A stretch of DNA of 64,000 bases from Candidatus Aminicenantes bacterium (GCA_963754085.1 CAVWFA010000003.1:391854-455853); one strand, 5' to 3'. Positions 9,708 through 63,424 are shown, counted from the stretch's first letter. Notes: a model not told the origin generated them from the letters alone. Program-made: numbers and translations.

Positions 9708-9736
9708 GGGGACATGTACCTGAGGTACGTGTCCCC
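9708..9736 (+). repeat. 29-nt hairpin element GGGGACATGTACC-TGA-GGTACGTGTCCCC (type 1)
   Basis: 13-bp arms with one T:G pair on the + strand, 9 nt after the GNAT stop. One of four near-identical copies in the window. Confidence 0.9.
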
Positions 9737-9760
9737 GGCCCGCAGCCTGGCGTCCGCTCG

Positions 9761-9789
9761 TTGACAGTCCGTTTTATTGCTGATAAAAA
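9761..9789 (+). promoter_or_regulatory. Candidate sigma70 promoter for pckG (TTGACA-N17-TAAAAA, with TG at -15/-14)
   Basis: Consensus -35 at 9761-9766 and an AT-rich -10 at 9784-9789. GAGG RBS 7 nt before ATG 9808. Confidence 0.4.
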
Positions 9790-9807
9790 TGGAAGCCGAG
9801 GCCTAAT

Positions 9808-11574
9808 ATGATTTCAGCCGCGGAACGCTGGGTCGCCGACCAGGAACGACTGGCCAAGCCGGCCCGCGTCTACTGGTGCGACGGCTCCGACGGCGAGGCC
9901 TGGCGCCTGCTCGAGATCGGCCTGAACGAGGAGCGCCTCAACGGGCCGGTCTTCCAGCCGCTCAACCACAAGACCTGGCCGACGGCCTACCTCCACCGTT
10001 CCGCCACGAACGACGTCGCCCGGGTCGAGCAGCTGACCTTCGTCTGCCATCCGACCAAGGAGGCGGCCGGGCCGAACAACAACTGGATGGACGTGGGCAA
10101 GGCCAAGAAGCTCATGGCGTCGCTCTCGGACGGCTGCATGGCCGGCCGGACCATGTACGTCATTCCCTACATGATGGGCCACCCCGACTCGCCCTACGCC
10201 AAGGCCTGCATGATGATGACGGACTCGAGCTACGTCGCCGTCAGCATGCGCATCATGACCCGCATCGGCTCGGCCATCCTGGAGAAGCTTCGCAACCGCG
10301 AGGACTTCGTCAAGGGCTTCCACTCGATCGGCACGCTCGACCCCGACCGCCGCTACATCATGCACTTCCCCGAGGAGGGCCTGGTCTGGAGCGTCGGCTC
10401 GGGCTACGGCGGCAACGCCCTGCTCGGCAAGAAGTGCGTCGCCCTCCGGATCGGCTCGTTCCTCGGCTACAAGCAGGGCTGGCTGGCCGAGCACATGGTC
10501 ATCATGGGCATCGAGGACCACCGCGGCAAGACGACCTACGTCACGGCCGCGCTGCCGAGCGCCTGCGGCAAGACCAACCTGGCCATGATGGAGTCGGCCC
10601 TGCCCGGCTACCGGGTCTGGACGCTCGGCGACGACATCGCCTGGCTCAACATCGGCCCCGACGGGCGCCTCTGGGCCATCAATCCCGAGGCCGGGTATTT
10701 CGGAGTGGCGCCGGGGACGTCCATGAAGACGAACCCCAACATGATGAAGACCATCCAGCGGGGCGCCTTCAACCCGACCCTGTTCACCAACGTCGCCCTC
10801 GACACCGACCGCAACGAACCTTGGTGGGAGGGCCTCGACGGCCCCGTCCCCGAACATCTCCTGGACTGGCAGGGGAAGCCCTGGACGCCGGCGCTGGGGA
10901 CCAAGGCGGCTCACCCCAACTCCCGGTTCACGGCCCAGATCGTCAACTCGCCCATGCTGGACAAGCAGGCCGAAAACCCGCAGGGGGTGCCCATCTCGGC
11001 CATCATCTTCGGCGGCCGCCGCACCCAGCTCATCCCGCTCGTCATCGAGAGCTTCAATTGGGCCCACGGCGTCTTCATGGGCGCGCGGATGGGCTCGGAG
11101 ACGACCGCCGCGGCCACCGGACAGGTCGGCGTCGTGCGGCGCGACCCGATGGCCATGCTCCCCTTCTGCGGCTACAACATGGCCGACTACTGGCGCCACT
11201 ACCTCAACATGGGCAACCGCATGACGCGGCCGCCCAAGATCTTCGGGGTCAACTGGTTCCGGACCGACGATCGGGGCAAGTTCATCTGGCCGGGCTTCGG
11301 CGACAACATGCGCGTCCTCAAGTGGGTCATCGACCGGGTGACTGGCGCCGTGCCGGCCCGCGAGACCCCGGCCGGCCTGGTGCCGCGGGTCGAGGACTTC
11401 GACATGACCGGGCTCGACATGCCCAAGGACCGCCTCGAGACGCTGTTCGAGGTCCGGATCAAGGACTGGAAGTCCGAGGTCGACGGGATCCGGGACTTCC
11501 TCAAGCCCTACAAGGGCCGCCTGCCAGCCGAGATCCGCGAGCAGTACGAAAAGCTCGAGCGCCAGGTCCGCTGA
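9808..11574 (+). CDS. pckG: Phosphoenolpyruvate carboxykinase (GTP)
   Basis: 588 aa with GTP-PEPCK hallmarks: YWCDGS N-terminus, GSGYGGNALLGKKC, SACGKTN P-loop, GDDIAW, FGGRR. Confidence 0.95.
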   Translation: MISAAERWVADQERLAKPARVYWCDGSDGEAWRLLEIGLNEERLNGPVFQPLNHKTWPTAYLHRSATNDVARVEQLTFVCHPTKEAAGPNNNWMDVGKAKKLMASLSDGCMAGRTMYVIPYMMGHPDSPYAKACMMMTDSSYVAVSMRIMTRIGSAILEKLRNREDFVKGFHSIGTLDPDRRYIMHFPEEGLVWSVGSGYGGNALLGKKCVALRIGSFLGYKQGWLAEHMVIMGIEDHRGKTTYVTAALPSACGKTNLAMMESALPGYRVWTLGDDIAWLNIGPDGRLWAINPEAGYFGVAPGTSMKTNPNMMKTIQRGAFNPTLFTNVALDTDRNEPWWEGLDGPVPEHLLDWQGKPWTPALGTKAAHPNSRFTAQIVNSPMLDKQAENPQGVPISAIIFGGRRTQLIPLVIESFNWAHGVFMGARMGSETTAAATGQVGVVRRDPMAMLPFCGYNMADYWRHYLNMGNRMTRPPKIFGVNWFRTDDRGKFIWPGFGDNMRVLKWVIDRVTGAVPARETPAGLVPRVEDFDMTGLDMPKDRLETLFEVRIKDWKSEVDGIRDFLKPYKGRLPAEIREQYEKLERQVR

Positions 11575-11728
11575 TCTCTCTCATTGTCCTCGCTTCGCTC
11601 AATTGTCCTTTTATCAGGACAGAATTCAACCTTCGGTCCCCTCTTATCAGGCAGGGACTTTGGCATAATCCTTGCAGCACATTATTAAAGAGGGATTAAT
11701 GTTATCTTTCGCAAATGTGGGGTCTAAG

Positions 11729-13322: not shown

Positions 13323-13324
13323 CC

Positions 13325-21405: not shown

Positions 21406-22438
21406 CTAGAACTTGGTGTTGAACACCGGCAGGACGCGGAGGTTCTTCGGATTGTCGCGGACGATGTTGACCAGCCCGATCTGAACGCCCTTCTCGATCC
21501 TCCAGGCGTAGTTGACGATGCCGATGCTGAGGCCCTTGAGCCCGCCCTGGCAGTAATTGAAGGCGCTCGCGGACAGGCCCGAAAGCCGGCCGTCCTTGAC
21601 CACCCGGACCATTCCCAGGGCCAGGAACGCGCCTTTGAGGTCCTCGCCGCCGACGCCGAGGCCGCAGACGGCCAGGCCGCGGATCTTGGGGGCGCCCGCG
21701 CCGATGCCGCAGACGACGAGCCCGTTGATGGACTCCCCGGCGCCGAGCCCGATCCCGCCGATGCCGACGCCGGTCAGGCGCTCCCCGCACCCGGCGCCCA
21801 ATCCGCCGATGACCAGGCCGGTCAGGTTCTCGCCGACTCCGGCCCCCAATCCGCCGATGGCGATGCCGGTCAGGTCGCCGCCCACGCCGGCGCCCAGGCC
21901 GCCGATGAGGATGCCCGTGGCGTTCTCCCCGGCCCCGCAGCCGAGCCCGCCGATGGCGATCCCGGCCAGGTCCTCGCCCGCGCCGGCCCCCAGGCCGCCG
22001 ACGGTGATGCCTTTGACGTTCTCGCCGGCCCCCGCGCCGAGCCCGCCGATGGTGATACCGACGAGGTCGTCCCCCGCGCCCGCGCCGAGGCCGCCGATAT
22101 TGATGCCCTTCATGCTGGTATCGGCGCCGGCCCCCAGGATGCCGATATTGAGGCCGTTCATCCGGCCGCCGCCGGGAGCGATGCCGAGCGAAAGACCGTT
22201 GACGATGGCGTCCTTGTTGTCCTTCTTCGGCCGCCAGAAGGTCACGTTGACCCCGTTGATCCTGTTGACCCGGCTGTCGCGGAAGTTGAACCGCAGGCCG
22301 GAGAAGGTCTTCGAATTGCCGAAGCTGAGGCCCCAGTCTTCGAGGGGATGTCCAGGCTCTGGGCGAACAGGCCGGCGGCCGAGGCCATCCCCAAGACGAG
22401 AACGAAGACGACGATCGCGAACGTTTCATCAGGCGCAT
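21406..22438 (-). CDS. Exported glycine-rich repeat protein (16-residue GIxIGGLGAGAGxxLx units); N-terminal region needs two frame corrections
   Basis: The main ORF 21406..22245 lacks a signal peptide. MRLMKR (frame of 22438), FAIVVFVLVLGMASAAGLFAQSLDIP and LEDWGLSFGNSKTF.. are found in three successive frames. The breaks lie at a T-run (about 22420) and a C4 run (22344-22347). Confidence 0.65.
21630..22155 (-). repeat. About 11 tandem 48-bp coding repeats (16-aa Gly-rich unit)
   Basis: GINIGGLGAGAGDDLV / GITIGGLGAGAGENVK / GIAIGGLGCGAGENAT ... read directly from the translation. Confidence 0.85.
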
Positions 22439-22955: not shown

Positions 22956-22977
22956 GGGGAATTGGTATTGTGTCCCC
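22956..22977 (+). repeat. Solo arm of the 59-nt element (GGGGAATTGGTATTGTGTCCCC)
   Basis: Its last 19 nt are identical to the right arms at 48463-48481 and 49931-49949. Confidence 0.8.
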
Positions 22978-29260: not shown

Positions 29261-29277
29261 ACACCCCGTCACGCTTC

Positions 29278-29348
29278 TAAAGAAGGGACCTGGTCTTCGC
29301 ATTTATGGTCGCCTCATTTGAAAATGCGAAGACCAGGTCCCTTCTTTA
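29278..29348. repeat. 71-nt palindromic element, perfect 27-bp arms (TAAAGAAGGGACCTGGTCTTCGCATTT / complement), 17-nt loop
   Basis: Arms at 29278-29304 and 29322-29348 are exact reverse complements. Confidence 0.9.
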
Positions 29349-29362
29349 AATTAAAAAGGTAT

Positions 29363-29377
29363 AGGTTTGACCCCTTC
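29363..29377 (+). repeat. Solo terminal motif AGGTTTGACCCCTTC (matches the right end of the 29749-29833 element)
   Basis: Compare 29818-29833 AGGTTTGACCCCCTCT. Confidence 0.6.
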
Positions 29378-29448
29378 TTATTTGACTTGGGGGGAGCGGC
29401 GACCTACTATATCTCAAAGGGGTATTTTCTCGAGGAAGGGGAACCGCT

Positions 29449-29748
29449 ATGCATGCGCGTCTCTTGAGGATGCAGGTCAAACCCGAGCGGATCGACGAAG
29501 CGGCCCGGATCTTCGCCGAGGAGGTCGCGCCCGGCTGCCGCGCCCTGCCCGGCTTCCGCGGCGCCTATTTTCTGGTCGACCGCAAGCTCGGGGAGTGTCT
29601 GCCCATCACGCTCTGGGAGACCGAGGCCGAAATGATCGCCACGGAGGAGAACCGGTTTTTCCAGACCCAGCTCATGAAATTCCTGGGCCTCTTCCATCAC
29701 GGCCTCGTCCGAGAGGCCTTCGAGGTGGTGTTCTCCGAGCGCGCCTGA
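29449..29748 (+). CDS. ABM (antibiotic-biosynthesis-monooxygenase-like) ferredoxin-fold protein
   Basis: 99 aa, pattern ..PGF.G.Y.L.DR..G....ITLWETEAEM.. typical of ABM/Dabb small proteins. Confidence 0.6.
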   Translation: MHARLLRMQVKPERIDEAARIFAEEVAPGCRALPGFRGAYFLVDRKLGECLPITLWETEAEMIATEENRFFQTQLMKFLGLFHHGLVREAFEVVFSERA

Positions 29749-29833
29749 GAGGGGGTCAAACCTAAACTTCTCATAATTTCGGGCCGGAGACTTTGCGCTA
29801 GGAAATTATAAGAATTTAGGTTTGACCCCCTCT
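29749..29833. repeat. 85-nt imperfect palindromic element (AGAGGGGGTCAAACCTAAA.. / ..TTTAGGTTTGACCCCCTCT)
   Basis: About 32-bp arms with one indel and one mismatch, 21-nt loop. Starts directly after the ABM stop codon. Confidence 0.85.
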
Positions 29834-41461: not shown

Positions 41462-41490
41462 TTGACAAGCAGTATGATATCCAGTATAGT
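41462..41490 (+). promoter_or_regulatory. Consensus-like sigma70 promoter of padR copy 1 (TTGACA-N17-TATAGT)
   Basis: Read directly from the sequence. The leader carries the direct repeat ACACATCAT at 41496-41504 and 41513-41521; the second copy overlaps the ATG. Confidence 0.6.
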
Positions 41491-41519
41491 TTAATACACA
41501 TCATAGTGAGATACACATC

Positions 41520-41867: not shown

Positions 41868-42529
41868 CAAGCTCGAAGCTTATCTCGAAGAGATCAGCCA
41901 CTTCCTCTCCGGCCGCGCCGAGCGCGAGGAAATCCTGTCGGAGATCCGCAGCCACATCCTGGAAAAAGCCGCCGCGGAGACCGGCGCGTCGGGCGACGCC
42001 GCCGTCGAAACGGCCATCGCCGCCTACGGCGCCGGCCGCGCCGCGTCGCCGAGCGCTACGTCGAAGACCGGCCCATCATCGCCCCGGCCTACAAGCGCTA
42101 CCTCTTCCGTTACACGACGTTCCTCTTCGCCATCCACACCGCGCTGACCCTCATGGCCGTGGTCTTCAAGAAGGACTTCGTCCTCTTCCCGTTCCTGTAC
42201 ATGCCCAAGCTCGGCGTTATCGAGGCCCTGATGTACCTGCCGACGGCCTTCCTGGCCGACCTCGGCATCGTCACGGTCGTGCTCTACTTTATCACCCAGA
42301 GCGGCAAGGACATCAAGCTGCCCTGGCCGAAGTTCGCCGTCGACCTCGACGAGGTCAAGCCCCCGACAGAAGAGCTTCTGGCTGAGCCGCGTCGCCACGG
42401 CCGTCGGGGCGGTCATCATGCTGGCCATCACCGATTTCGCGCTCTATGTCTTCGCCCGGCACCAGACCATCTTCTTCGCCAACGTCGACTGGCACAACCT
42501 GCGTCCGCTGTTCATGCCGGCCGGCAGAA
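41860..42529 (+). pseudogene. PadR-associated HAAS/DUF1700-type membrane protein, copy 1: two frame breaks, 3'-truncated at the duplication junction
   Basis: MSDKLEAYLEEISHFLSGRAEREEILSEIRSHI. Breaks near 42040-42046 and 42366-42372 relative to copy 2. Homology ends at 42522. Confidence 0.7.
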
Positions 42530-43102
42530 TGCCGGCAGAGCGCAGTTGCAGATGCCGCCCAGGAAGGGCGTCACGAACGACCAGACGGTGTGGCAGAGCC
42601 CTTCCTCTTCGCTTTCACGCATCAAAGCCAGGGCTTCCTCTTTAGGCAGGAACTCGAGCCCGCCGGTCTGCGGTCCGATGAGATAGCCGGAGTCGACGCT
42701 CTTGAGGATGTTCAGCATCTCGCCGCCCTGCGGCGCCAGGCTGATGCCGTAGCAGTAGCGGTGCTCGGGTCCGAAGGCCACGTGGCGGCAGATGCAGGCC
42801 AGGCGGACGACCGAGGTCGTGAAGCCGAGGATGCGCTCGATGTCTTCGATCGGGACGACCTGGCCGAAATGATTGACCTTCTGCCGCTTGGTGATCGCAC
42901 GCCGGATGCCGCGGGTGAAGAACGAGGGGATCCGGTCGAGCTTGCCGAGAGCCTTTTCACCCTTCGCCAGGTGCTCCGGCGATTCGAAGAAGCGCTCGAT
43001 GAATTTCCGCCTGCGGAGGTCGCTGAGCAGGTCCTCGGCGTAGTTATTGGCGTTGAGGTACCACTTTTTCCCCTCGCCGTGCTGATGGCAGAATTCGCAC
43101 AT
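42512..43102 (-). pseudogene. 3'-truncated paralogue of the Fe-S protein (lacks the ferredoxin-type C-terminus)
   Basis: Matches residues 1 to about 190 of 40317..41165 up to ..FLGGICNCALP, then runs into junction sequence. Confidence 0.75.
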
Positions 43103-43399
43103 CTTGAGGCCATCGTGCCACAGGCTTCCCGGGGTGTCAATCCTTTGAACATGGGGGCCAGGGGCCAAAGACAGGAAAAAACCGTTCCCAGGACGAATTT
43201 TCATCAAAAACACTGGAAAAGCACGGTTTTTCCCCTATCACGGTCAAGGCTCGCACGGGCCGTTTTGAAGGCCCTGCCTGAAGGCCTCGGCAGAAGGCCG
43301 ATCGGGCGACCATTTTCGCAACCGGATCCCCATCAAAGTCGGGAAAATCCTAGGAAAATCCCGACCGGACTTGGAAAAAGACAGTGTTTTAAAAAGTGC

Positions 43400-43428
43400 T
43401 TGACAAGCCGTATGATATCCAGTATAGT
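43400..43428 (+). promoter_or_regulatory. sigma70 promoter of padR copy 2 (TTGACA-N17-TATAGT)
   Basis: Same architecture as 41462-41490. Confidence 0.6.
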
Positions 43429-43457
43429 TTATTACACATTATAGTGAGACACACATC

Positions 43458-43805
43458 ATGACAAACAACGAACCCGACATCGGCAGCCTCGAAACGGAGA
43501 TGAACCGGGGGTTCCTCCACATCCTCGTCCTGGCCCTGCTCGAAAAGGACATGTACGGCTATTCCATGGTCAAGCACATCGAGACGCTGGGCTACAAGGT
43601 CGAGGAGAACACCCTCTATCCCCTTCTCCGCCGGCTCGAGAAGAACGGCTGGATCGCGTCGAAGTGGAACCTGACCGAGGACAGGCCCCGCAAGTTCTAC
43701 GCGATCACCGCGGCGGGCCGCACCCTCCGGGCCAACCTTCTCGACGTCTGGAAGACCCAGAACCGCGTCCTCGAAAAGATCAACAAGGAGACCTCCCATG
43801 TCTGA
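43458..43805 (+). CDS. PadR-family transcriptional regulator (copy 2)
   Basis: 115 aa, 6 substitutions relative to copy 1. Confidence 0.9.
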   Translation: MTNNEPDIGSLETEMNRGFLHILVLALLEKDMYGYSMVKHIETLGYKVEENTLYPLLRRLEKNGWIASKWNLTEDRPRKFYAITAAGRTLRANLLDVWKTQNRVLEKINKETSHV

Positions 43806-44785
43806 CAAGCTCGAAGCCTATCTCGAAGAGATCAGCCACTTCCTCTCCGGCCGCGCCGAGCGCGAGGAGATCCTGTCCGAGATCCGCAGCCACATCCTGG
43901 AAAAGGCCGCCGAGGGGACCGGCGCGTCGGGCGACGCCGCCGTCGATAACGGCCATCGCCGCCTTCGGCCCGGCCCGCAAGGTCGCCGAACGCTACGTCG
44001 ACGACCGGCCCATCATCGCCCCGGCCTACAAGCGCTACCTCTTCCGCTACACGTCGTTCCTCTTCGCCATCCACGCCGCGCTGACCGTCATGGCCGTCGT
44101 CTTCAAGAAGGACTTCGTCATCTTCCCGTTCCTGTTCATGCCCAGGCTCGGCGTCATCGAGGCCCTGATGTACCTGCCGATGGCCTTCCTGGCCGACCTC
44201 GGCATCGTCGCGGTCGTGCTCTACTTCATCACCCAGAGCGGCAAGGACGTCAAGCTGCCCTGGCCGAAGTTCGCCGTCGACCTCGACGAGGTCAAGCCCC
44301 CGAAGAAAAGCTTCTGGCTGAGCCGCGTCGCCACGGCCGTCGGGGCGGTCATCATGCTGGCCATCACCGACTTCGCGCTCTATGTCTTCGCCCGGCACCA
44401 GACCATCTTCTTCGCCAACGTCGACTGGCACAACCTGCGTCCGCTGTTCATGCCGGCCCCCGGACGGCGCATCTCCCTCATCGTCATCGCCATGTTCGCC
44501 GCCTCGACCATGGCCCTCCTCGTCAAGCTCTTCACCCGCTCCCGCTGGGTCGACGTCGCTTCGAACGTCGTCACGCTCGGCCTCGTCGGCCTCCTTCTCC
44601 GCCAGCCCTTCGACAACCTCTTCGTCCCCGAGATCGCCGGCCGCTTTTCGCCCAGGATCGTCACCTGGGGGAAATATTCGGTCCTCTTCACGCTCCTCTT
44701 CATCGCCCTGATGACCACCATCGAGCTGGTCAAGAGCATCGTCATCATCAGCCGGCGGAAGCTCAATTCGGTGACACACAACTGA
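43798..44785 (+). CDS. PadR-associated HAAS/DUF1700-type membrane protein, copy 2 (full length; one frame break near 43946)
   Basis: The N-terminal helical domain is in the frame of 43798. The TM body (..VAERYVDDRPIIAPAYKRYLF... to NSVTHN) is in the frame of ORF 43664..44785. An extra T in GATAAC relative to GAAAC of copy 1. Confidence 0.7.
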
Positions 44786-46968: not shown

Positions 46969-46988
46969 GGTTGCCCGAGGCCAGGACC

Positions 46989-47810
46989 ATGCCCCAGCAT
47001 TCGAGACTCACACCCGTCGCGGCCGCCCTTCTCTGTCTCGCCCCCCTGCTCTTCTCCGCCCGCCCCTCCTCCGGGCAAGCCTCCGCGGCCAAACCCGCCA
47101 CCGGTCCCGACGCCGCCGCCCTGGTCGAAAAGATCGGCGCGCGCATCGCCTCGTATCCCAAGCTCGAGTCCTGGCAGGCCCGGGCCCGCTCGACGTCTTC
47201 CCGGATGACGTCCGAATGGAAGCCGAAGAGCACGACGGTCACGGAGAAGCTCGTCACGGTCGACGGCGGCCTCTGGTCCGAAGAGATCCTGAGCGCCACG
47301 GAGACGGAAGACGGCCAGACCCGCGACGTCACCAAGAAGTCCCAGGAGGAGGCCCGCGAGCGCGCGGCCAAGCAGAAGCGCTCGACCGACGAGGAGCGCA
47401 AGTCCGACCAGCGCAGCCGCGGCCGCCGCAGTCTCGACATGACCCGCGACGAGGTCCTGCCCTTCGGCCCCGACAAGCGCGCGGGCTACGACTTCACGAT
47501 CGAGGGCCAGCGCGACCTCGACGGCTCGCCCGCCGTCCTCCTCCGGTCGCGCTCCCGGGTCCGCTCCGACGAGAAGTTCGAGGGCCTCTACTACGTCGAC
47601 CCGGCGACCGGCGACGTCCGCCGGGCCGAGCTGACCCTGGCCAAGATGCCCGGACCCCTCAAGCGCATGGAGATGGCGATCGATTTCCGGGTCCTGCCCG
47701 AAGGCAGCCAGGTGATGACGAAAGCCGTCATGCGCATCCACGTCGGGCTCATCGTCAAGAACATCCGGGTCGAGGCCGTCGAGAGCTACACCGACCACGT
47801 CGTCCGTTAA
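46989..47810 (+). CDS. Secreted hypothetical protein with a charged central linker
   Basis: Signal peptide LTPVAAALLCLAPLLFSA. No family confidently recognised (possibly a LolA-like fold). Confidence 0.6.
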   Translation: MPQHSRLTPVAAALLCLAPLLFSARPSSGQASAAKPATGPDAAALVEKIGARIASYPKLESWQARARSTSSRMTSEWKPKSTTVTEKLVTVDGGLWSEEILSATETEDGQTRDVTKKSQEEARERAAKQKRSTDEERKSDQRSRGRRSLDMTRDEVLPFGPDKRAGYDFTIEGQRDLDGSPAVLLRSRSRVRSDEKFEGLYYVDPATGDVRRAELTLAKMPGPLKRMEMAIDFRVLPEGSQVMTKAVMRIHVGLIVKNIRVEAVESYTDHVVR

Positions 47811-47814: not shown

Positions 47815-47879
47815 GGGGACATGATACCCGTTTCCCATTTTCCGCTGGCTTAAAAAAGGGAAACGGGTATCATGTCCCC
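47815..47879. repeat. 65-nt palindromic element, perfect 22-bp arms GGGGACATGATACCCGTTTCCC / complement
   Basis: Arms at 47815-47836 and 47858-47879. Lies 4 nt after the stop at 47808-47810. Confidence 0.9.
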
Positions 47880-48367: not shown

Positions 48368-48422
48368 CGCGTGTTCCTCCGCACTCTGTTAGACGGGCTG
48401 GGACCGGATTTCTTCCTTAAAG

Positions 48423-48481
48423 GGGGACACAATACCAATTCCCCTATTTTCAATAAATGGGTGAATTGGTATTGTGTCCCC
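48423..48481. repeat. 59-nt palindromic element (19-bp arms GGGGACACAATACCAATTC / GAATTGGTATTGTGTCCCC), copy 1
   Basis: Part of a 70-nt block (48421-48490) that is 69/70 identical to 49889-49958. Confidence 0.95.
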
Positions 48482-48484
48482 GAT

Positions 48485-49705
48485 TTAGAGCGTCCCGGCG
48501 ACGGCCTGATGGAGGACCATTTCGGATTCAGTCTTGGTCGGGTCCTTCACCAGGATGCCCCGGGACGACTGGGCGAAGCCTCCCCTGCCGATGATCGTAT
48601 CCCGCGCTTCCGTCAGCCAAGCATTGATCCCGGCGTGATCGGGCCGGTGCCTCTCGTTGTTGTCGACGGGATACAGGACGTATTTCGCCGACCAGTAGTC
48701 CAGCGCGACCGGGTCCTGGCTGGCCAGGATGGTGTTGGCCCTGGTGGTGGCCGAGGCCGGATATCCCGTCAGGGCCCCTTGCGAGACCCAGATCGCGTCC
48801 ATAATGTTGAGGACTGGAGTGTGGACGGAGACCATCATCTTGCCGCAGGTCTCGCCGAGCCCGCCGTAATGGCGGAAATCCGAATTGCCGTCGGACATCG
48901 AGACCAGGCCGTACACGTGCTTGAGGGCACCTGTGATCTCCGAGCCGCCCGTGTCGTGGTGCTTGAGGACGGGAATGTTGATGAGCTTGAGGTTCGCGCC
49001 GTGGACCGTCCCGTTCCAGACGCCCTCGCGGAGCTCGACGCGCCGGCCGCCCGCCGTCGTGAAGCAGGGGTACGAGACGTTCTCATAGGTCCGGTAGCCG
49101 TTGGCCGAGTGCTCGGACGCCCCGATGAAGTTGCCGCGCACGGGATCGAGCAGGAACGCCGAGACCCGGGAGTCGTTGAACAGGCTGTTGACGAGCCAGA
49201 GGAACGAGTGGCTCTCGTCCTGGGCGTTGGCGTGGACCCCGGTGTCGCCGCCGTAGGAGCTCGAAGTGTTGCAGGCCAGGCTGCCCCGGCCCTGGCCGTT
49301 CTCGACGATGACCACCTCGCCGCCGAAACCGTCGGGGTGTTCGAGGATCCGCTGGATGACGCCGCGGACGAGGTCGCTGTTGGTGCAGCCGCGGTATTTC
49401 CACTGGGCGTTGACCTTGATGAGCACGACGTCGGCGGCGGCGATAAGGCCGTTCGCGCCGTTCAAGGCGCCCGGTGTCGAGGTCCGATAGAACTTGAGCC
49501 CGTTCTGCCCCATGAGCGCGAGGAGCGTGTCGACACCGGAATGGCGGCTGCCCGAGACGATGGCGTTGGCCGGGATCTGGGTGACCTGGAACAGGGCGTT
49601 CCGCGTATCCGACGGCTCATCGGGGGCGTTCGAGGTCTCGCACCGGACGAGCGGCAGCGAGGCCGCGCCGACCAACCCCATCTTGACGAAATCCCTGCGC
49701 TTCAT
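48485..49705 (-). CDS. Tat-signal DUF362-domain protein
   Basis: MKRRDFVKMGLVGAASL signal. VLIKVN, PVLKHHDTGG.EITGALKH, IMDAIWV and ILASQDPVALD patterns resemble DUF362. Confidence 0.7.
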   Translation of the reverse strand: MKRRDFVKMGLVGAASLPLVRCETSNAPDEPSDTRNALFQVTQIPANAIVSGSRHSGVDTLLALMGQNGLKFYRTSTPGALNGANGLIAAADVVLIKVNAQWKYRGCTNSDLVRGVIQRILEHPDGFGGEVVIVENGQGRGSLACNTSSSYGGDTGVHANAQDESHSFLWLVNSLFNDSRVSAFLLDPVRGNFIGASEHSANGYRTYENVSYPCFTTAGGRRVELREGVWNGTVHGANLKLINIPVLKHHDTGGSEITGALKHVYGLVSMSDGNSDFRHYGGLGETCGKMMVSVHTPVLNIMDAIWVSQGALTGYPASATTRANTILASQDPVALDYWSAKYVLYPVDNNERHRPDHAGINAWLTEARDTIIGRGGFAQSSRGILVKDPTKTESEMVLHQAVAGTL

Positions 49706-49841: not shown

Positions 49842-49870
49842 GGGGACACGTACGAAGCGTACATGTCCCC
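49842..49870 (-). repeat. Type-1 hairpin element (GGGGACACGTAC-GAAGC-GTACATGTCCCC)
   Basis: Same family as 9708, 30664 and 52178. Lies 20 nt from the next element. Confidence 0.9.
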
Positions 49871-49890
49871 TGCTCACAGAGACGAAAAAG

Positions 49891-49949
49891 GGGGACACAA
49901 TACCAATTCCCCTATTTGCAATAAATGGGTGAATTGGTATTGTGTCCCC
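49891..49949. repeat. 59-nt palindromic element, copy 2
   Basis: See 48423-48481. Confidence 0.95.
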
Positions 49950-49952
49950 GAT

Positions 49953-51809
49953 TTAGAGGCCGTGGTACTTTTCGAGGATCTCGGCGTACTTGCGCTCCTC
50001 GAGCCGCAGGATCTCGGCGAAGCGGGGATCGTTCCTCAGCTTGTCGTAGAAATAGTCCCGGGTATTGTTGAGGTAGGAGAAGAAGTAGAGGTAGTCGTAA
50101 ATGTCCTCGAAACCCCGGTCGATGCCCGATTCGATCGTGGCCACCGCCTCGTCGAACATGCCCAGGGCCGCGTAGACGCGCGACCGGAAATAGGTGCCCC
50201 GCGACGGCCGGGACGCGTCGAGCGACGCCTCGATCGTGGCCAGGGCCGCCTTCCTGTCCCCGTTGGCCGCCGCGGCCAGGGCCCTCACGAGCCGGACGTA
50301 TGTGTCGCCCGGCGCCAGCGTCTCGGCCAAGGCCAGCTCGGCCGCCGCCGTGTCGTACCTCTTCATCAGGATGAGCGCCCGGGCCATGTGGCAGCGCGTC
50401 TTGACGTCGGTCGGGTCGAGCCCGATCATCTTGTCGTAGTCCGCCAGGGCCGACTCGAAGAGGCCCATCTGCTCGTAGGTATAGCCCCGCATCATGTACA
50501 TGTCCACCGTCGTGCCGCCGGCCTGGATGACCCGGGTGAAGTATTCGGCGGCCCGCTCCAGCATCCCGATGCTCCGGAGGAACCCGCCGATGTCGGTCAG
50601 GACATGGAGGCTCGACGGGTCGAGGGCCAGCGCCTTCTTGAGACAGGCGTAGGCCTGGTCGTTTTCTCGCCTGAAATAGTGGAACCAGGCCATCCCGACG
50701 TTGGTCTCGGCCCGGTCGGGGGCCATCTCGTAGGCGCGCCGGTAGTTCTCCTCCATCAGGCGCAGCGTGGCGGGGCTGTCCTCCTCGTAGACGAACCGGT
50801 ACTGGTAGGCGTCGCCCAGCCCGAGGTAGGCCAGGGGGCAGCCGGGGTCGGCCTCGCGGGCCTGGGTGAACAGGGCGATGATCTTCTCGAGCTCGGCCGG
50901 TTCGGTCGTGATCACGTACTTGCGGGCGATGGCCCGGGCCGTCTCATAGAGGCGGGTGGCCTGGACCGAGCAGAGGGCCAGGGCCTCGGGCCCGGACGAA
51001 GTCGGTACGCCGAAGGCGCGGCGGACGCCGTCGGCGATGCGGCTCTCGACGACGGGGATGTCGGCTTCCGTGCCCGGGACGTGGTCCGTCTTGAGCGGCG
51101 CGGCGCCGCGGGCCTCGCGGACCTCGTAACCGACGCGGATCTTCGAGCCGGAGCGGGCGAGGAAGCCGGCGACGAGCCAGCCCGCGCCCAGCCGGTCCGA
51201 GACGGCGGCGAGCTCGTCGGGTGTGAGCGGCGCGCCCGGCTCGAGGCCGAGCTTGCGCACGGTCTCGATCACGGCGGCGAAGGTGTAGACCTTGAGGTGC
51301 TCGGAGCTCCGCTGGAGATCCCGGATGAGGTGGTCGGGGACGGACTCGCGAAGGTAGTTGAGGCCGTCGTCGCCCGTCCCGTTGACGAAGGGCAGGACGG
51401 CGACCGCGGGGCGATCCCCGTTCGGGACGTAGTGGGGGTGGCCGTTGCTGATGACGCGCCAGCCGAGGACGCCGACGGCCATAAACGCCGTGAACCCGGC
51501 CAGAACGTACCAGCGACGGAACGAGGCGAAGGAGGTCGGGACGCGGAGGCCGAAGATCACGACGGCGTCGGGTCCGGACGCGGGGCCGGAGCCGGAGTGA
51601 GCCGGTTTCTCGGGATCGTGCTCGTGGAGCTTGGCGTCGAGCCACCAGTCGATCTCGTCTTTGTAGGCCATGACGCGGGCCTTGGGCGAGCCGTCGAGGC
51701 GGTGGACGGGGAGGCCGAGGTTCTCCTCCCAGCGGCGGCAGGTGCGGACGTCGCGGCCGAGGTAGGAGGCGATCTCCTTCCAGGACTGTAGAACTTCGCG
51801 AGCACCCAT
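49953..51809 (-). CDS. N-terminal HTH (SWKEIA.YLG...RT..RWE...GLPVH) - TM - periplasmic domain - TPR repeat protein
   Basis: 618 aa. Excisionase/MerR-like HTH, one TM segment, and multiple TPR-like repeats in the C-terminal half. Confidence 0.75.
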   Translation of the reverse strand: MGAREVLQSWKEIASYLGRDVRTCRRWEENLGLPVHRLDGSPKARVMAYKDEIDWWLDAKLHEHDPEKPAHSGSGPASGPDAVVIFGLRVPTSFASFRRWYVLAGFTAFMAVGVLGWRVISNGHPHYVPNGDRPAVAVLPFVNGTGDDGLNYLRESVPDHLIRDLQRSSEHLKVYTFAAVIETVRKLGLEPGAPLTPDELAAVSDRLGAGWLVAGFLARSGSKIRVGYEVREARGAAPLKTDHVPGTEADIPVVESRIADGVRRAFGVPTSSGPEALALCSVQATRLYETARAIARKYVITTEPAELEKIIALFTQAREADPGCPLAYLGLGDAYQYRFVYEEDSPATLRLMEENYRRAYEMAPDRAETNVGMAWFHYFRRENDQAYACLKKALALDPSSLHVLTDIGGFLRSIGMLERAAEYFTRVIQAGGTTVDMYMMRGYTYEQMGLFESALADYDKMIGLDPTDVKTRCHMARALILMKRYDTAAAELALAETLAPGDTYVRLVRALAAAANGDRKAALATIEASLDASRPSRGTYFRSRVYAALGMFDEAVATIESGIDRGFEDIYDYLYFFSYLNNTRDYFYDKLRNDPRFAEILRLEERKYAEILEKYHGL

Positions 51810-51888: not shown

Positions 51889-51951
51889 GGGGGTCTGACG
51901 TACTTTTCGCGTATCCCGGTTTTGAGGCAAGCGAAAAGTAGGTCTGACCCC
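51889..51951. repeat. GGTCTGAC-type palindromic element (GGGGTCTGACGTACTTTTCGC ... GCGAAAAGTAGGTCTGACCCC)
   Basis: Same outer architecture as 62301-62366, with a different inner stem. Confidence 0.85.
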
Positions 51952-52002: not shown

Positions 52003-52823
52003 ATGTCCCGCCGCCACCCGAAAGGTTATTGGTACCTGCCCGGGCTCCTCTACGATCTCGCCTTCAAGCGCATGTTCCGGGGCTTGCGGCGACGGGTCTC
52101 GCGGACGATCGAACGGGAGGGGCTCTATCCTTGGCTGGAGGTCTGCTGCGGCACGGGCGACCAGCTGCGGCACGCGCGGGGACATGTACCGAAGGTACGT
52201 GTCCCCCAAATTGGATTGGCCGAGGAGGGGTTTGCTTGGGGGACGGCGAACATGGAGCCCGGAACGGGTGTCCCCGATGAGCAAGCACAGGGGGTCGAGG
52301 CACGAGACGGCCGGGCCGTAGTTGGCCTCGACCTGAGCTTCGGCTTCGTCCGATACGCCGGGCCCGCGCGCCCCAGGTCCCGTTCATTTGCGGCGATGCG
52401 GCCCGACTCCCGTTCAAGACCGGCTCCATGCGGGCCGTCAGCGTGTCGTTCGGCCTCCACGACAAGAGCCTGGAGCTCCGGAGCGCGATCCTGGCCGAAG
52501 CGAAGCGAGTGTTGAAGCCGGGCGGGCGGCTCATCGCCGTCGATTTCGAGAACCCCTGGGACGCGGCCTCGCGCGCCGGGGCCCTGTTCACCCGGGCCAT
52601 CGAGCGGCTCGCCGGGCGGGAGCACTACGGCAACGGCCGGGATTTCCTGCGCCGCGGCGGCCTGCGGGGCTTTCTCCGGGAGAACGGTTTCGCCGAGGTT
52701 GCGCGCCGCGACGTCCCGGTCGGCTCGGTCAGTGTGGTCGTCGCGAAACTCGACTCGGATCGCCCTTGCGATTTGCCGCCCGCGGAGATTAAGATGGCGT
52801 CAAACCATTTGTTCCCGAGATAG
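52003..52823 (+). CDS. Class I SAM-dependent methyltransferase interrupted by an in-frame block of about 98 nt of palindromic-element sequence, plus one frame break near 52360
   Basis: LEVCCGTGDQL (motif I), then about 52 aa instead of the usual about 20 before VVGLDLS. FICGDAARLPF..SMRAVSVSFGLH, VLKPGGRLIAVDF. Confidence 0.65.
52178..52206 (+). repeat. Type-1 hairpin element (GGGGACATGTACC-GAA-GGTACGTGTCCCC) inside the methyltransferase ORF
   Basis: Arms identical to those of 9708-9736. Confidence 0.9.
52238..52275. repeat. Degenerate GGGGAC...GGAACGGGTGTCCCC element fragment
   Basis: The right end resembles the right arm of 47858-47879 (GGGAAACGGGTATCATGTCCCC) with an internal deletion. 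Confidence 0.5.
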
Positions 52824-54713: not shown

Positions 54714-57040
54714 TCAGGGCGTCACGGTCAGGGTCGCCCTGACGGTGACGCCCCTTCTGGCTGAAATTGTGACAGCTCGTGTCGACGTCACGGCAGACGT
54801 TGTGATCGAGAATGTCGCTGTCGTCGCCCCGGCCGGAACGGTTACTGACGCCGGCACCTGAGCAGTCGAGGTACGGCTGCTCGTCAGTGTGACGACCATC
54901 CCTCCGGCAGGCGCCGGTCCGGTCAATGAGACCGTACCTGTGGATGGGTTACCTCCGCGTACACTGCTTGGATTGAGGCTCAGCGAGGATGCCACGGGCG
55001 CCCTCACCGCAAGGCTCGCCGTCCGGCTGACGCCGTTGTAGAGGGCCGTGATCGTCGACGACCGATTCGAGGTCACGGGGCTCGTCGTCACCGTGAACGT
55101 CGCCGTGGTCGCCCCGGCCGCCACCGTCACCGAGGCCGGCACCTGGGCCGCTGTATTGCTCGAGGTCAGGCTGACCACTGCCCCGCCTGTCGGAGCCGGT
55201 CCACCCAGTATCACGGTTCCCGTCGAGGACTCCCCGCCCACAACCGTCGCCGGGCTCACGCCCACGGACGTCAGCGTCGCCGCCGCCGGCGCCGTCACCG
55301 TCAGGGTCGCCGTCCGGCTGACACTGGAATAAACGGCCGTGATCGTCACGGCCGTATCGGCAGCCACCGGGCTCGTCGCCGCCGTGAACGTCGCCGTCGT
55401 CGCCCCGGCCAGAACGGTCACGCTCGCCGGCACCTGGGCCGCCGCCGTGTTCGAGCTCGTCGTAGCGTGACCACGGCACCGCCCGGTCGGCGCCGGCCCG
55501 CTCAGCGTTACCGTTCCGGTCGAGGAGGTGCCGCCGGGCACAGTCGCCGGGCTCACGCTCACAGACGTCAGCGTCGCCGCCACCGGCGCCGTCACCGTCA
55601 GGGTCGCCGTCCGGCTGACACTGGAATAAGCAGCCGTGATCGTCACCGTCGTATCGGAGGCCACCGGGCTCGTCGCCGCCGTGAACGTCGCCGTCGTCGC
55701 CCCGGCCAGAACGGTCACGCTCGCCGGCACCTGGGCCGCCGCCGTGTTCGAGCTCGTCAGCGTGACCACGGCACCGCCCGTCGGCGCCGGGCCGCTCAGC
55801 GTCACCGTTCCGGTCGAGGACGTGCCGCCGGCAGAGCCGCCGGGCTGACGCTCACGGACGTCAGTGTCGCCGCCGCCGACGCCGTCACCGTCAAGGTCGC
55901 CGTCAGGGTGGCGCTGCCGTAAACAGCCGTGATCGTTACCGTCGTATTGGAGGCCACCGGGCTCGTCGTCACCGGGAACGTCGCCGTCGTCGCCCCGGCC
56001 GCAACGGTCACGCTCGCCGGCACCTGGGCCGCCGTGTTCAAGCTCGCCAGCGTGATTACCACTCGGCCCGCGGGCGCTGGACTGACCAAAGCCACCGTTC
56101 CTTGGAGGACGCACCGCCCGGCACCGAAGCCGGGGTGATGTTCACCCAGCTGAGCGTCGCTGCCGCCACGGTCACCGCCAGGGTCGCCGTCCGGCTGACA
56201 CTGGAATAAACAGCCGTGATCGTCACCGTCGTATTGGAGGCCACCGCGCTCGTCGTCGCCGTGAACGTCGCCGTTGTCGCCCCGGCCACAACGGTCACGC
56301 TCGCCGGCACCTGGGCCGCCGCCGTGTTCGAGCTCGTCAGCGTGACCACCGCCCCGCCCGCCGGCGCAGGTCCGCTCAGCGTCACCGTCCCGGTCGAGGG
56401 ACTCCCGCCCACGACCGAAGTCGGGATCAGGCTGATGGAGCTCAGGACCGGCGCGGGACGCCGTCATGGTCACCGTCAGGGCGGCCGTACGGGTCACCCC
56501 GATCGTAGAGGGCCGTGATCGTCACCGCCGTATTGGAGGCCACCGGGCTCGTCGTCGCCGTGAATGTCGCCGTTGTCGCCCCGGCCAGAACGGTCACGCT
56601 CGCCGGCACCTGGGCCGCCGCCGTGTTCGAGCTCGTTAGCGTCACCACCGCCCCGCCCGCCGGCGCAGGTCCGCTCAGCGTCACCGTCCCTGTCGACGAA
56701 ACGCCGCCCTGCACTGAAGCCGGGCTCACGCTCACGGACGTCAGCGCCGCCTCCGGCGCCATCACCGTCAGCGTCGCCGTCCGATTGATACCGTCATAGA
56801 GGGCCGTGATCGTCACCGCCGTGCTGAGCGCAACCGGGTTCGTCGTGGCCGGGAACGTCGCCGTCGTCGATCCAGCCGCCACCGTCACCGACGTCGGCAC
56901 CTGGGCCGCCGCCGTGTTCGAGCTCGCCTGGACGTAACCACCGTGCCCGCCGGCGGGCGCAGGTCCGCGAGCGTGATCGTTCCGGTGAGACACCCGCCCA
57001 CCGTCACCGGGTCTATGCCGAGCCGATGAGCGCAACGCCT
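54714..57040 (-). CDS. Thr/Ala/Val-rich Ig-like tandem-repeat surface protein (about 8 x 98 aa), many frame breaks; possibly continuous with the CE4 gene upstream
   Basis: Repeat unit: LTSVSVSPATVPGGTSSTGTVTLSGPAPTGGAVVTLTSSNTAAAQVPASVTVLAGATTATFTAATSPVASDTTVTITAAYSSVSRTATLTVTAP. Confidence 0.7.
54740..57010 (-). repeat. About 8 tandem copies of a roughly 294-bp coding repeat
   Basis: The marker GTGATCGT recurs at 55048, 55339, 55636, 55929, 56216, 56515 and 56808. Spacings are 291/297/293/287/299/293, which are not all multiples of 3. Confidence 0.9.
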
Positions 57041-60652: not shown

Positions 60653-60731
60653 CATCCGAAGGTTCAAGACCGGACCACTTCCTGCAGGGAACTAGAATTC
60701 GGCGAGAGACTGGCTGAGAGAGGAGCTAGCG

Positions 60732-62278: not shown

Positions 62279-62283
62279 GCAGG

Positions 62284-62366
62284 ATAGGGGTCTGACTGAG
62301 ATAGGGGTCTGACGTGATCTTTACGCCCTCATTGTCCCTAAAGGCGTAAAGAGCAGGTCTGACCCC
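62284..62366. repeat. GGTCTGAC-type element: solo ATAGGGGTCTGAC followed by a full hairpin (GGGGTCTGACGTGATCTTTACGCC ... GGCGTAAAGAGCAGGTCTGACCCC)
   Basis: Fills the 98-nt gap between convergent stop codons (62276-62278 and 62377-62379). Confidence 0.85.
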
Positions 62367-62376
62367 TTCTTGTCTC

Positions 62377-63298
62377 TTACCGCGCCGGCGCCAGCGAGAT
62401 CAGCGCCCGCAGCGTCCTGAATCCCTCGATGTAATCGTTCGCCGTGAAAGTCAGGGTCCTGGCGTCCAAGCGCTTGACGTTGGGCAGCAGCATGGCTCCC
62501 ATGTCGGCCTGGGCCGAGACATGATAGGCCAGCTCGAAAGTATAGGGGGAGGTCATCTTGAACGGCTTGATCTGGCCTATCTTCCCGAGCGCGTCCTTGA
62601 CGCCCGCCTTGATCATCTGGCGGGCTTCGGCCATCGGGACGAGCTTGGCGGCCAGTCGGCCGTAGGCTTCTTTGACGGCGACCGTGGCGACATCCTTCCC
62701 CAAGACCTCACCCGCCTGCCGGCAGACTGCGGTATCTCCGCTGACCAGGATCACCGGGACGCCGTAATAGCCGGCGATCAGGGCAGTTGAGCCCCAATTC
62801 GGGCAGTTCGACGCCGTTGACCTTGATGGCCCGGACGACGCTTCCCGATATCGTATGGTCGAGGATGGCGTTCTCCGTGCCGGCCTTGGCGTGGTATCCG
62901 ATGAGCAGACAGGCCGCGTAGGAGGCGTCGATGCCCTGCATCATCGAAAGAGGCTTCGGAGAGCCGCTGATGAGAATGGCCTTGGGGTGCAGGTCGGCGG
63001 GGCTGACGTTTCGCATGGAGCCGTGGGAATCGTTGACCACGACCTCGGTGGCGCCGGCTAAGAGCGCGCCTTCGACTGCGGCGTTGACGTCCTCGGCCAT
63101 CCATTTGCAGCCGGCCCCGTACTCGGCCGTTCCCGGCGACGTCTGGTCGCCGTGAACGATGCCGGAGATCCCCTCCATGTCGACCGAGATGAAGACCTTG
63201 AGGGGCGGCTTGGGGGCTGGCTTCTGCTGGGCGGAGGCAAAGACCAGAGGAAGCGAAATGATGGCGACGGTGCCGAGGGCGAGGACTGTTCTTTTCAT
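62377..63298 (-). CDS. M55-family D-aminopeptidase (DppA-like), exported; frame break near 62786
   Basis: ISVDMEGISGI, NDSHG and GYHAKAG motifs. Continuation ..LIAGYYGVPVILVSGD.. runs in the neighbouring frame. Confidence 0.8.
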
Positions 63299-63323
63299 TG
63301 AACCCTCCGAAAAACACAATATT

Positions 63324-63424
63324 CTGTTTTCAGGGCCAAAAACATCGATTTAAGGCCTTTATCGTGCCAATTTATCGGTCTAACTTATTGATTTCTATGT
63401 ATATTTCTGAGGTCCGACCCCATT
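63324..63424 (-). repeat. AT-rich structured intergenic element, copy Y (minus strand; starts AATGGGGTCGGACCTCAG)
   Basis: An 18-mer identical to 34107-34124, then about 70% identity over about 100 nt, including the TGTTTTTGGCC..AAAAC hairpin. Confidence 0.7.

Follow-up and report, generated by a model that had tools for sequence, protein, structure and literature searches.

Short G4/C4-footed palindromes of a Candidatus Aminicenantes genome form a mobile superfamily, probably of the REP and terminal-inverted-repeat kind

Palindromes that open with a run of four Gs and close with a run of four Cs are scattered through a 64,000-nucleotide (nt) stretch of a Candidatus Aminicenantes genome (CAVWFA010000003.1:391854-455853, hereafter the window), raising the question of whether they are hairpins maintained by the host or copies of mobile elements. 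The original prediction, made from this stretch alone, proposed a superfamily of about seven sequence types that it did not recognise, and likened them to non-autonomous repeats of the repetitive extragenic palindrome (REP) or BIME, Correia or Rickettsia palindromic element (RPE) kinds. All the elements it listed were found at their coordinates, and its general reading was borne out, since the elements are multi-copy, polymorphic between relatives, present in frame within coding sequences and arranged in places as inverted doublets, and have no match in Rfam (none at the gathering threshold across the window, and none for Type 1 in any Rfam family). The superfamily is real and mobile. We consider it probable that its members are short non-autonomous mobile palindromes, of the kind to which REP, REPINs and the repeats derived from transposase terminal inverted repeats (TIRs) belong, and that they are moved by a Y1 enzyme of the 'TIRYT' type encoded elsewhere in the genome. 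We regard the family as an undescribed member of this known kind; no such repeat has been described for Aminicenantes in the literature that we searched.

Type 1 (T1) has the structure GGGGACAYGTACC-NNN-GGTACRTGTCCCC, or GGGGACAYGTAC-N5-GTACRTGTCCCC when written as a search pattern. Its exact form, GGGGACAYGTACNNNNNGTACRTGTCCCC, occurs four times in the window, against 0.00 expected from 100 dinucleotide-preserving shuffles, and no additional copies with up to three mismatches were found there. Hairpins with a G4...C4 foot and a stem of at least 13 bp (at most one mismatch) occupy 8 loci in the window, compared with a mean of 0.14 and a maximum of 2 in 100 first-order Markov shuffles; this threshold superseded a scan at stems of at least 9 bp, which was dropped as non-discriminating (15 observed, 14.8 expected). 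The family accounts for 12 of the 17 strong intergenic hairpins of the window, and Types 1 to 6 (T1 to T6) fold as single-stranded DNA with z-scores between -2.3 and -11.3, the weakest being reads of T1 on its C·A strand.

The outer end of a unit is GGGG(A/T)C...G(T/A)CCCC, often followed by an (N)TTCTT tail. The claim that all elements begin and end in this way applies to most types and fails for Type 4, whose foot is G3/C3 (AAGAAGGGACC...GGTCCCTTCTT), and the AT-rich type (AT type), which had been taken for a palindrome, consists instead of two inverted copies of about 100 nt with a GGGGTCGGACC end on one side only. The 3' foot sorts the types into a group A, with GGTAY(N)RTGTCCCC (T1, T2 and T3), and a group B, with AGGTYYGACCCC-TTCTT (T5, T6 and the AT type, with T4 related). 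Small units such as T1 and a 22-nt unit at position 22956 occur singly; in T2, T3 and the T1 pairs of relatives, two units lie in inverted order and together fold into a long hairpin.

The repeats are not restricted to the window. In a scan of 185,579 species genomes, we identified exact T1 in at least 115 genomic stretches, belonging to many Aminicenantes/Acidobacteriota metagenome-assembled genomes (MAGs) and to one Caulobacter/Caulobacteraceae group that includes a finished isolate genome. The arms of T2, T3, T4 and T5 recur in Aminicenantes loci; T6 and the AT type were not found among the related T1-bearing loci outside the window. The T2/T3 arm is often solo in relatives (22-30 nt), indicating that T2 and T3 of the window are inverted doublets of a smaller unit, of which the copy at 22956 is a singlet. 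The T1 pattern had no match in 2.9 million viral contigs, and thus no phage vector is indicated.

The window itself has a G+C content of 66%, carries ordinary chromosomal genes (PEPCK, lactate permease, xanthine-dehydrogenase-type subunits, RluA, M28, M24 and M55 peptidases, Nramp and a PadR regulator), and aligns across several kb, at 75-88% nucleotide identity, with MAG contigs labelled Acidobacteria or Acidobacteriota. One relative of the window is labelled 'Eubacteriales', probably wrongly. For one window protein the orthologues bear the name 'Candidatus Aminicenantes bacterium', in keeping with an acidobacterial host of the Aminicenantes type. The same repeats (T1 and T4 arms) occur in further MAGs titled 'uncultured Eubacteriales bacterium' (loci L001, L005, L021, L024, L044, L050, L058, L065, L072, L076, L078, L081, L082, L094 and L115), of which L072 is 82-85% identical to the window; these are very probably mislabelled Aminicenantes/Acidobacteriota bins.

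The T1 stem carries a fixed imperfection. Of 139 exact copies, 133 have T..G or C..A at the two variable positions of the stem, never a complementary pair, and with up to four substitutions allowed (201 copies, 151 of them exact) position 8 forms T·G in 192, where one substitution would give a perfect pair. The retained mismatch gives T1 a polarity, with the T·G wobble strand folding at -11.8 kcal/mol and the C·A mismatch strand at -9.9 kcal/mol. The remainder of the stem is invariant and the 3-nt loop hypervariable: the four window copies have four different loops, which are pyrimidine-rich in Aminicenantes generally and nearly always C-GCA-G or C-GAA-G in Caulobacteraceae. Strand asymmetry together with a hypervariable loop is the pattern to expect where a protein recognises a single strand of the hairpin.

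Read in the T·G orientation, T1 of Aminicenantes has (G/A)TTCTT after the hairpin and in many cases AAGAA(C) before it; in Caulobacteraceae, TAAACCC or CAATCGAG comes after the hairpin. Profiling the flanks of 137 oriented copies gave a weak (A)AGAA(C) on the 5' side, GTTCTT (Aminicenantes) or YAAWC (Caulobacteraceae) on the 3' side, and no GTAG or CGTC tag. Aminicenantes copies have no orientation bias relative to flanking genes (25 on the same strand, 24 on the opposite one) and also occur in divergent spacers and within open reading frames (ORFs), the lack of bias and the divergent-spacer copies pointing to an element at the DNA level. Caulobacteraceae copies are usually TG-20 nt-CA doublets between convergent genes. 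In L003, L010, L022, L043, L054, L085, L090, L091, L105 and other loci of this group we observed a composite of about 78 nt, hairpin(TG)-TAAACCC-N-CTCGATTG-hairpin(CA), in which the triloops are GNA and the G of a TAG stop is sometimes part of the first hairpin; the layout is much tighter and more polar than in Aminicenantes.

Comparison of orthologous loci revealed presence/absence polymorphism, including one clean insertion. In L074 relative to L064 (flanks 75-90% identical), a 31-nt T1 insertion lies directly 3' of GGGG, with no target-site duplication. The empty site of L064 reads ...AAATC GGGG|CTGTTTGACAGG (short form ATC GGGG|CTGTTTGAC), and the filled site of L074 reads ...AAAAC GGGG[ACATGTACCTTAGGTACGTGTCCCCATTCTT]CGGTTTGACAGC (short form AAC GGGG[ACATGTACCTTAGGTACGTGTCCCCATTCTT]CGGTTTGAC). 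The insertion sits in the loop of a pre-existing GTCAAAC/GTTTGAC hairpin, and the TTCTT tail came with it; a GTTCTT tail as pre-existing target is ruled out by the empty site, which lacks it. GGGG or GGGGAC was already in place at the target, at the position of the T1 5' foot, in two independent clean cases (L064, and L208, discussed below).

Further differences between relatives include an in-frame T1-containing insertion of 48 nt (16 codons) that a 598-aa ORF of L087 has over L036, a spacer in which L041 and L051 hold a T1 doublet (120-167 nt) and L023 has 19-36 nt, a 60-nt tandem duplication of T1 in L029 relative to L113, and three T1-type hairpins in L062 in a spacer where the window has none. 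Types also replace one another at the same spacer. The window T6 at 62301 corresponds in L095 to a T6 left arm followed by T1 in the right half of the site, the window AT-type copy at 63324 corresponds to T1 in L095, and T1 of L094 corresponds to a GGGGACTGTCCCC-type hairpin in L050.

L095 is collinear with the window except that three gene blocks, at 44.8-48.0 kb, 48.4-52.0 kb and 52.8-60.8 kb, are missing from it. T2, T3 and T6 lie at the borders of the first and second blocks, and elements may mark recombination or indel breakpoints. We set aside a reading of these bordering elements as attC sites of integron cassettes, as the genes are housekeeping genes in both orientations and no integrase is present.

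Coding sequences (CDS) have been entered repeatedly. Fifteen T1 copies lie inside called ORFs among the related T1-bearing loci outside the window, using all three frames (GD(M/T)Y..Y(V/M)SP, GHVP.V(R/H)VP and GT.T.GT.P), and two window copies (30664 and 52178) also lie within ORFs. The copy at 52178 falls between motif I (CCGTGDQL) and the GLDLS motif of a UbiE-like methyltransferase, where the L095 orthologue has two T1 copies and an intact frame. A search with the L095 protein identified 120 orthologues of 196-272 aa, the shortest full-length one (207 aa) having no insert; the CCGTG...GLDLS segment is 22 residues long in the shortest orthologue and up to 75 in the longest. An intact GHVPxV(R/H)VP was found in 29 of the 120 and a looser version, sometimes twice, in 46. 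The empty site in L208 DNA is CAGCTGCGGGGAC|GGGCC. The filled sites are CAGCTGAGGGGAC-ATGTACC...GTGTCCCC-ATTCTT in L209 and CAGCTGCGGGGA-CAGCTGAGGGGA-CATGTACC... in L210, the latter with a 12-nt tandem duplication, and both extend the L208 sequence as GGGGAC-ATGTACC...GTCCCC-ATTCTT.

Tandem duplications of 12 nt (four codons) with a GGGGA foot lie directly 5' of T1 in L210 and L095, and also in P0263, P0272 and P0286, appearing in the proteins as QLRG-QLRG-HVP or RGRA-RGHVP; either successive rounds of insertion and excision or slippage at the hairpin may have left them. The window methyltransferase gene (52003-52823) is itself frameshifted near 52395 relative to L095, its near-identical homologue P0270 being intact, and the M55 D-aminopeptidase gene (62377-63298) is likewise split into two overlapping ORFs. 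Both frameshifts are either assembly indel errors or pseudogenes.

RAYT-like Y1 genes flanked by TIRs have been described as 'TIRtrons' or 'TIRYT' (Di Nocera, De Gregorio & Rocco 2013, BMC Genomics 14:522; PMC3733652). According to that study, some TIRYT TIRs have a GGGGWSAS motif and belong to repeat families of moderate abundance whose members are arranged as dimers or clusters, the TIRYTs of Acidobacteria are a distinct group, and REPs that give stop codons or lie within ORFs also occur. The ends of our elements fit GGGGWSAS (GGGGACAC in T1 and T3, GGGGTCAG in the T6 right arm) or differ from it by one base (GGGGACAT in T1/T2, GGGGTCAA in T5, GGGGTCGG in the AT type). The Koribacter versatilis TIRYT aba2776 is bracketed by AAAATC|GGGGACAGACGAAATAAT...ATTATTTCGTCTGTCCCC|GATTTT; at a distance of 1.3 kb there is a miniature element of 104 nt that has this foot as well. 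A related long-type TIRYT gene in a metagenome contig, L205, is bracketed by CGGGGACAGACGGGACGTTT...AAACGTCCCGTCTGTCCCC|GATTTTT (also read as GTCTGTCCCC|GATTTTT). The TIRs of aba2776 and L205 are thus GGGGACAG-ended with a GATTT outer flank, which the window T3 (...GTGTCCCC|GATTTAGAG) has in common with them. With the G4 run at the outer end, internal deletion of a TIRYT unit would give a GGGGACA...TGTCCCC hairpin. Short direct sub-repeat arrays lie just outside the TIRs of two TIRYTs, GAAAATCGGG in five copies in K. versatilis (L200, 1850-1910) and CACCGTAATTCC / GGTTATCGGTG in Caulobacter (L117, 9850-9960), and may be transposase-binding iterons.

We propose that a RAYT-like HUH Y1 transposase of the TIRYT type, encoded elsewhere in the genome by a gene whose terminal inverted repeats have the same G4 foot, would cut and paste the hairpins as single-stranded DNA (ssDNA), inserting them 3' of a GGGG(AC) target without duplication. 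It would favour single-stranded spots, such as the loops of resident hairpins, a preference that would lead to nesting, clustering and the replacement of types at the same spacer. Surviving insertions would lie mainly just past stop codons, some giving the stop codon and some being tolerated in frame within proteins, and the longer types with U-rich tails would probably have a secondary role as 3' hairpins of transcripts. The shared foot, the strand-specific imperfect hairpin, the insertion without duplication at a short target and the preference for hairpin loops point to such an enzyme, and all four fit HUH Y1 'peel and paste' chemistry. This chemistry is established for IS608/ISDra2 and REP-RAYT.

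Several results weigh against this proposal. We found no Y1 (RAYT/TIRYT) gene in the window or the 115 T1-bearing loci (about 0.8 Mb) among all ORFs of at least 70 aa, using 15 RAYT/TIRYT sequences (Additional file 5 of PMC3733652), a hidden Markov model (HMM) built from these 15, and approximate E. coli RayT, IS200 and IS608 sequences; weak tblastn matches in L008 and L045 were discarded as out-of-frame within tgt genes. The gene calls of the window likewise contain no transposase by Pfam (a few short low-scoring calls at 54-61 kb being left out), so that the absence of a transposase from the window, as first claimed, agrees with Pfam scans, RAYT/TIRYT HMM and tblastn alike. No TIRYT gene flanked by T1 to T6 sequences was found among the TIRYT loci inspected, which have related but different TIRs, GGGGACAGACG in Acidobacteria. 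Homologues of aba2776 gave thousands of matches, of which three that we sampled have GGGGACAGACG-type or degenerate TIRs and no T1. A short Terriglobia TIRYT, recovered at 80 loci by a metagenome profile scan, has TIRs of the form GGGTGCCCC with CCCC...GGGG hairpins of opposite polarity and represents a different family. The C. crescentus TIRYT ccr1445 homologue of a complete Caulobacter genome is adjoined by GCACTGTCACCGTAATT and flanked by TAGTGCACTGTCACCGTAATT repeats with no T1, and is not the partner of T1. The GGGG-target rule comes from two clean cases, and the L087/L036 insertion is not readily accommodated by it. Selection by the host on each copy could likewise produce perfect stems around fully variable loops. 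Finally, 39 of 54 Caulobacteraceae copies of T1 start -1 to 10 nt past a same-strand stop and are oriented so that the mRNA hairpin contains a G·U pair, which suggests an RNA-level or translation-linked constraint in that group.

Another agent of mobility is conceivable, whether a DDE transposase, as for miniature inverted-repeat transposable elements (MITEs), a site-specific recombinase, or template switching or gene conversion through GGGGAC microhomology at stalled hairpins, and we judge this unlikely. The failure to find a Y1 gene near any copy, in the window or the T1-bearing loci, is in its favour; the presence of GGGG(AC) at both empty sites is also predicted by microhomology-primed copying; and the 12-nt duplications 5' of T1 in L210 and L095, together with the 60-nt duplication of L029, look slippage-like. 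However, the lack of a target-site duplication at L074/L064 counts against DDE MITEs, and Pfam scans identified no DDE transposase or recombinase gene in the window. Template switching would neither keep a T·G mismatch in 95% of copies nor produce a defined 3' tail, and the G4 foot is common to the elements and to the TIRs of Y1 genes.

A poorer candidate still, and one that we hold to be distinctly improbable, is that these are RNA hairpins selected by the host, as terminators, stabilisers of mRNA 3' ends or sites for RNA-binding proteins, and spread by recombination rather than transposition. Most copies do lie a few nt past stop codons: with our own gene calls we counted about 9-10 elements within about 20 nt of a stop, which upholds the near-stop siting described earlier but not its figure of eleven copies within 0-18 nt, and three types supply or overlap the stop itself (T3 in both copies, as Leu-TAA, T5 as TGA and the AT type as TAA). 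In their long form T1 and T4 read AAGAAC-stem-GTTCTT, with an A-tract and U-tract as in bidirectional terminators, T3 at 49891 is followed by a run of five Ts on the sense strand, and Types 4 and 5 are followed by U-rich tails. Canonical terminators are not enriched in the 44-64 kb region (8 against 11.9 expected), so that on an RNA reading something else must end transcripts there, and in Caulobacteraceae the G·U orientation and stop-proximal siting follow transcription. Against this, T1 of Aminicenantes has no orientation bias and enters divergent promoter spacers and CDS in all three frames, the window copies of T1 have no U-tract, and the genes on either side of T6 at 51889 are divergent. 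Terminators do not evolve as identical stems of 26 nt at hundreds of unrelated loci in two phyla, and the clean 31-nt insertion in a hairpin loop and the replacement of types at the same spacer indicate insertion events. The longer types with U-rich tails (T3 at 49891 and Types 4 and 5) may, from their sequences, work as terminators.

That the elements are DNA-level sites conserved by the host or its transformation machinery (a palindromic operator, a gyrase- or IHF-type site as in BIMEs, or inverted DNA-uptake sequences) is very improbable, since, for all that an invariant stem with a free loop resembles a dimeric binding site, a few copies lie in promoter regions (T6 at 51889) and the motif is common to two phyla, a symmetric site or uptake pair would be a perfect palindrome whereas the T·G/C·A asymmetry is fixed, most copies lie at gene 3' ends or within CDS, one genome has several unrelated stem sequences, and the borders of the insertion polymorphism are precise.

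Short non-autonomous palindromes moved by a TIRYT-type enzyme, the reading that we prefer, have their closest counterparts in the TIRYT TIR repeats, which share the GGGGWSAS outer end, the occurrence as singles, dimers and clusters, the presence of Acidobacteria among their hosts, and the miniature derivative near aba2776. The stems, in contrast, diverge past the first 7 nt, and T1, at only 29 nt, is far more abundant and widespread than the described TIR families, from which it also differs in its fixed T·G mismatch and its insertion into CDS. The REP/REPIN-RAYT systems of E. coli, Pseudomonas and Stenotrophomonas are alike in being imperfect palindromes of 20-40 nt in high copy, mostly at gene 3' ends, with inverted doublets forming long hairpins, a conserved stem and variable loop, strand asymmetry, some copies that give stops or sit in ORFs, and no target duplication. 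T1 differs in having no unpaired GTAG (or CGTC) tag, its place being taken by the G4/C4 foot and the TTCTT 3' tail, and in occupying two phyla, whereas published descriptions treat REPIN-RAYT systems as vertically inherited and lineage-specific.

Other systems resemble the family in single respects. IS200/IS605 elements (IS608, ISDra2; HUH Y1) would share the reading of one strand of an irregular-stem hairpin and the insertion into ssDNA 3' of a short specific target without duplication, as two clean junctions suggest; T1 differs in having no internal transposase gene, in that the GGGG/GGGGAC target becomes the hairpin foot, and in that no left- or right-end guide sequences are recognisable within its 29 nt. 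RPEs are likewise in-frame, translated palindromes in apparently intact proteins, as T1 is in the methyltransferase, RluA and others, but are unrelated in sequence and host. T1 is mostly found between genes, and its copies measure 29-35 nt, against roughly 100-150 nt for RPEs. Correia/NEMIS, ERIC, RUP and other bacterial MITEs are also small non-autonomous inverted-repeat elements beside genes, with possible effects on transcripts; they measure 70-300 bp and have DDE-type TIRs and target-site duplications, and T1 shows no duplication.

A more far-reaching reading of T1, which we offer tentatively and think rather doubtful, is that it is a minimal ssDNA transposable module of 25-31 nt, with an obligatory T·G mismatch and a hairpin completed by the GGGG(AC) target, that would often land in the loops of resident hairpins or in Gly/Arg codons, would owe the exact stem common to Aminicenantes and a Caulobacteraceae lineage to the movement of a hairpin-specific Y1 enzyme between phyla, and would have been tamed in Caulobacteraceae into a hairpin about 6 nt past the stop codon. 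If true, this would be a horizontally mobile REPIN-like system that colonises CDS, contrary to the picture of vertically inherited REPIN-RAYT systems. The occurrence of identical T1 in a lineage of Caulobacteraceae makes this family a candidate for the transfer of such a system across phyla.

The intergenic DNA of bacteria is shaped by short palindromic repeats, which are well studied in few Proteobacteria only; the present family displays a REP-type lifestyle in an uncultured phylum, where it constitutes most of the strong intergenic hairpins of the window. The elements turn over between close relatives, give stop codons and add peptide loops to enzymes, and they account for differences in gene length, and for likely errors of annotation, among these MAGs. 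Its distinguishing features are the conserved T·G mismatch, the nested insertion at GGGG without duplication, the recurrent in-frame methyltransferase hot spot across Aminicenantes, and the second phylum. The repeats are a marker for Aminicenantes genomes and connect, in a way open to testing, hairpins that abound in genomes with TIRYTs, a little-studied branch of the Y1 transposases. For biochemistry, T1 offers a substrate of defined sequence, 29 nt long and with a conserved mismatch.

Within the window, the first T1 hairpin (9708-9736, + strand, T·G on +; -11.8 kcal/mol, z = -6.3) lies 22 nt past the stop of the gene at 8594-9685 and upstream of the PEPCK gene. The solo 22-nt unit GGGGAATTGGTATTGTGTCCCC (22956-22977, +) equals one T3 arm, a REP-like singlet, and units of this kind also occur in L019, L041, L094 and L096. 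T4 (29276-29350, no strand assigned) is a perfect palindrome of 27-29 bp with the foot AAGAAGGGAC...GTCCCTTCTT (z = -11.3), lying 17 nt past the stop of a MobA-like gene, and its arm recurs in L021. It is followed by a solo group-B end, AGGTTTGACCCCTTCTT (29363-29380, +), shared with L037, L064 and L106, and by the T5 palindrome AGAGGGGGTCAAACC...GGTTTGACCCCCTCT (29748-29833, no strand assigned; z = -9.4), which overlaps the TGA stop of an ABM gene. The second T1 (30664-30692, -, T·G on -) lies 18 nt past the stop of a TPR gene, in an N-terminal extension of an RluA-type ORF whose ATG overlaps the preceding stop; there it is read as GGHVPGVHVP.

T2 (47815-47879, no strand assigned; z = -10) is a 65-nt inverted doublet of a 22-nt unit, located 4 nt past the stop of the gene at 46971-47810. 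The two T3 copies (48419-48490 and 49887-49958, both -) are 98.6% identical across 72 nt, a repeat that includes GATTTAGAG, and carry ...GTCCCCGATTTAGAG, the reverse complement of which is the Leu-TAA of two unrelated genes, a - strand DUF362 gene for the first copy and a TPR gene for the second, which the five-T run then follows on the - strand. The third T1 (49842-49870, -, T·G on -), with a 12-bp stem and 5-nt loop, adjoins this second T3 copy. T6 occurs in a divergent promoter region (51889-51951, no strand assigned; z = -5.7), with a T·T mismatch in the foot (GGGGTCTGAC / GTCTGACCCC), and between convergent genes (62301-62367, no strand assigned; z = -8.2), where a solo T6 left end, ATAGGGGTCTGACTGAG (62284-62300, +), precedes it 5 nt past the stop of the M24 peptidase gene. 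The fourth T1 (52178-52206, +), at the orthologous hot spot within the methyltransferase CDS, is read as RGHVPKVRVP. The G4...C4 segment at 52238-52275 (+), in the same CDS insert, had been paired with it as an example of close packing, but it is not a significant hairpin (z = -0.5) and is probably a decayed copy; L095 has an intact second T1 at the matching position.

The AT type is represented by a non-palindromic copy of about 100 nt with one GGGGTCGGACC end (34105-34205, +), which overlaps the TAA of the M28 peptidase gene, and by an inverted copy (63324-63426, -), whose orthologous spacer in L095 has T1 instead. The junctions of the AT type with its flanks (63422-63449 and 34100-34110) create a -10-like TACAAT, a promoter-like match on the - strand, and both copies point to the next downstream gene, a PcnB/CCA-type gene at 34327 and the M55 peptidase gene. 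A promoter or a 5' untranslated region may thus be carried, or created, by the element. A perfect 17-bp hairpin with a 3-nt loop (GGGCGTCACGGTCAGGG-TCG-CCCTGACGGTGACGCCC) at 54717-54753, followed by CTTCTGG, has a G3/C3 foot and a similar tail, and may be a further single-copy type.

The window also contains repeats of other kinds, and ARAGORN identified no tRNA or tmRNA genes in it. A direct tandem duplication of 1.9 kb (40597-42522 and 42534-44458, 96% identity), with genes for a 4Fe-4S protein and a PadR-family regulator, is single-copy in L095 and L072. A tandem array at 54782-57000, in which some 7-8 units recur about every 290 nt with 73-79% mutual identity, overlaps a 466-aa - strand ORF with no Pfam match and short + strand ORFs, and is either a repetitive protein gene or a non-coding array. 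Finally, an internal repeat with a period of about 96 nt (21693-22110, 74-76% identity) lies within the gene at 21406-22245 (-, no Pfam match).

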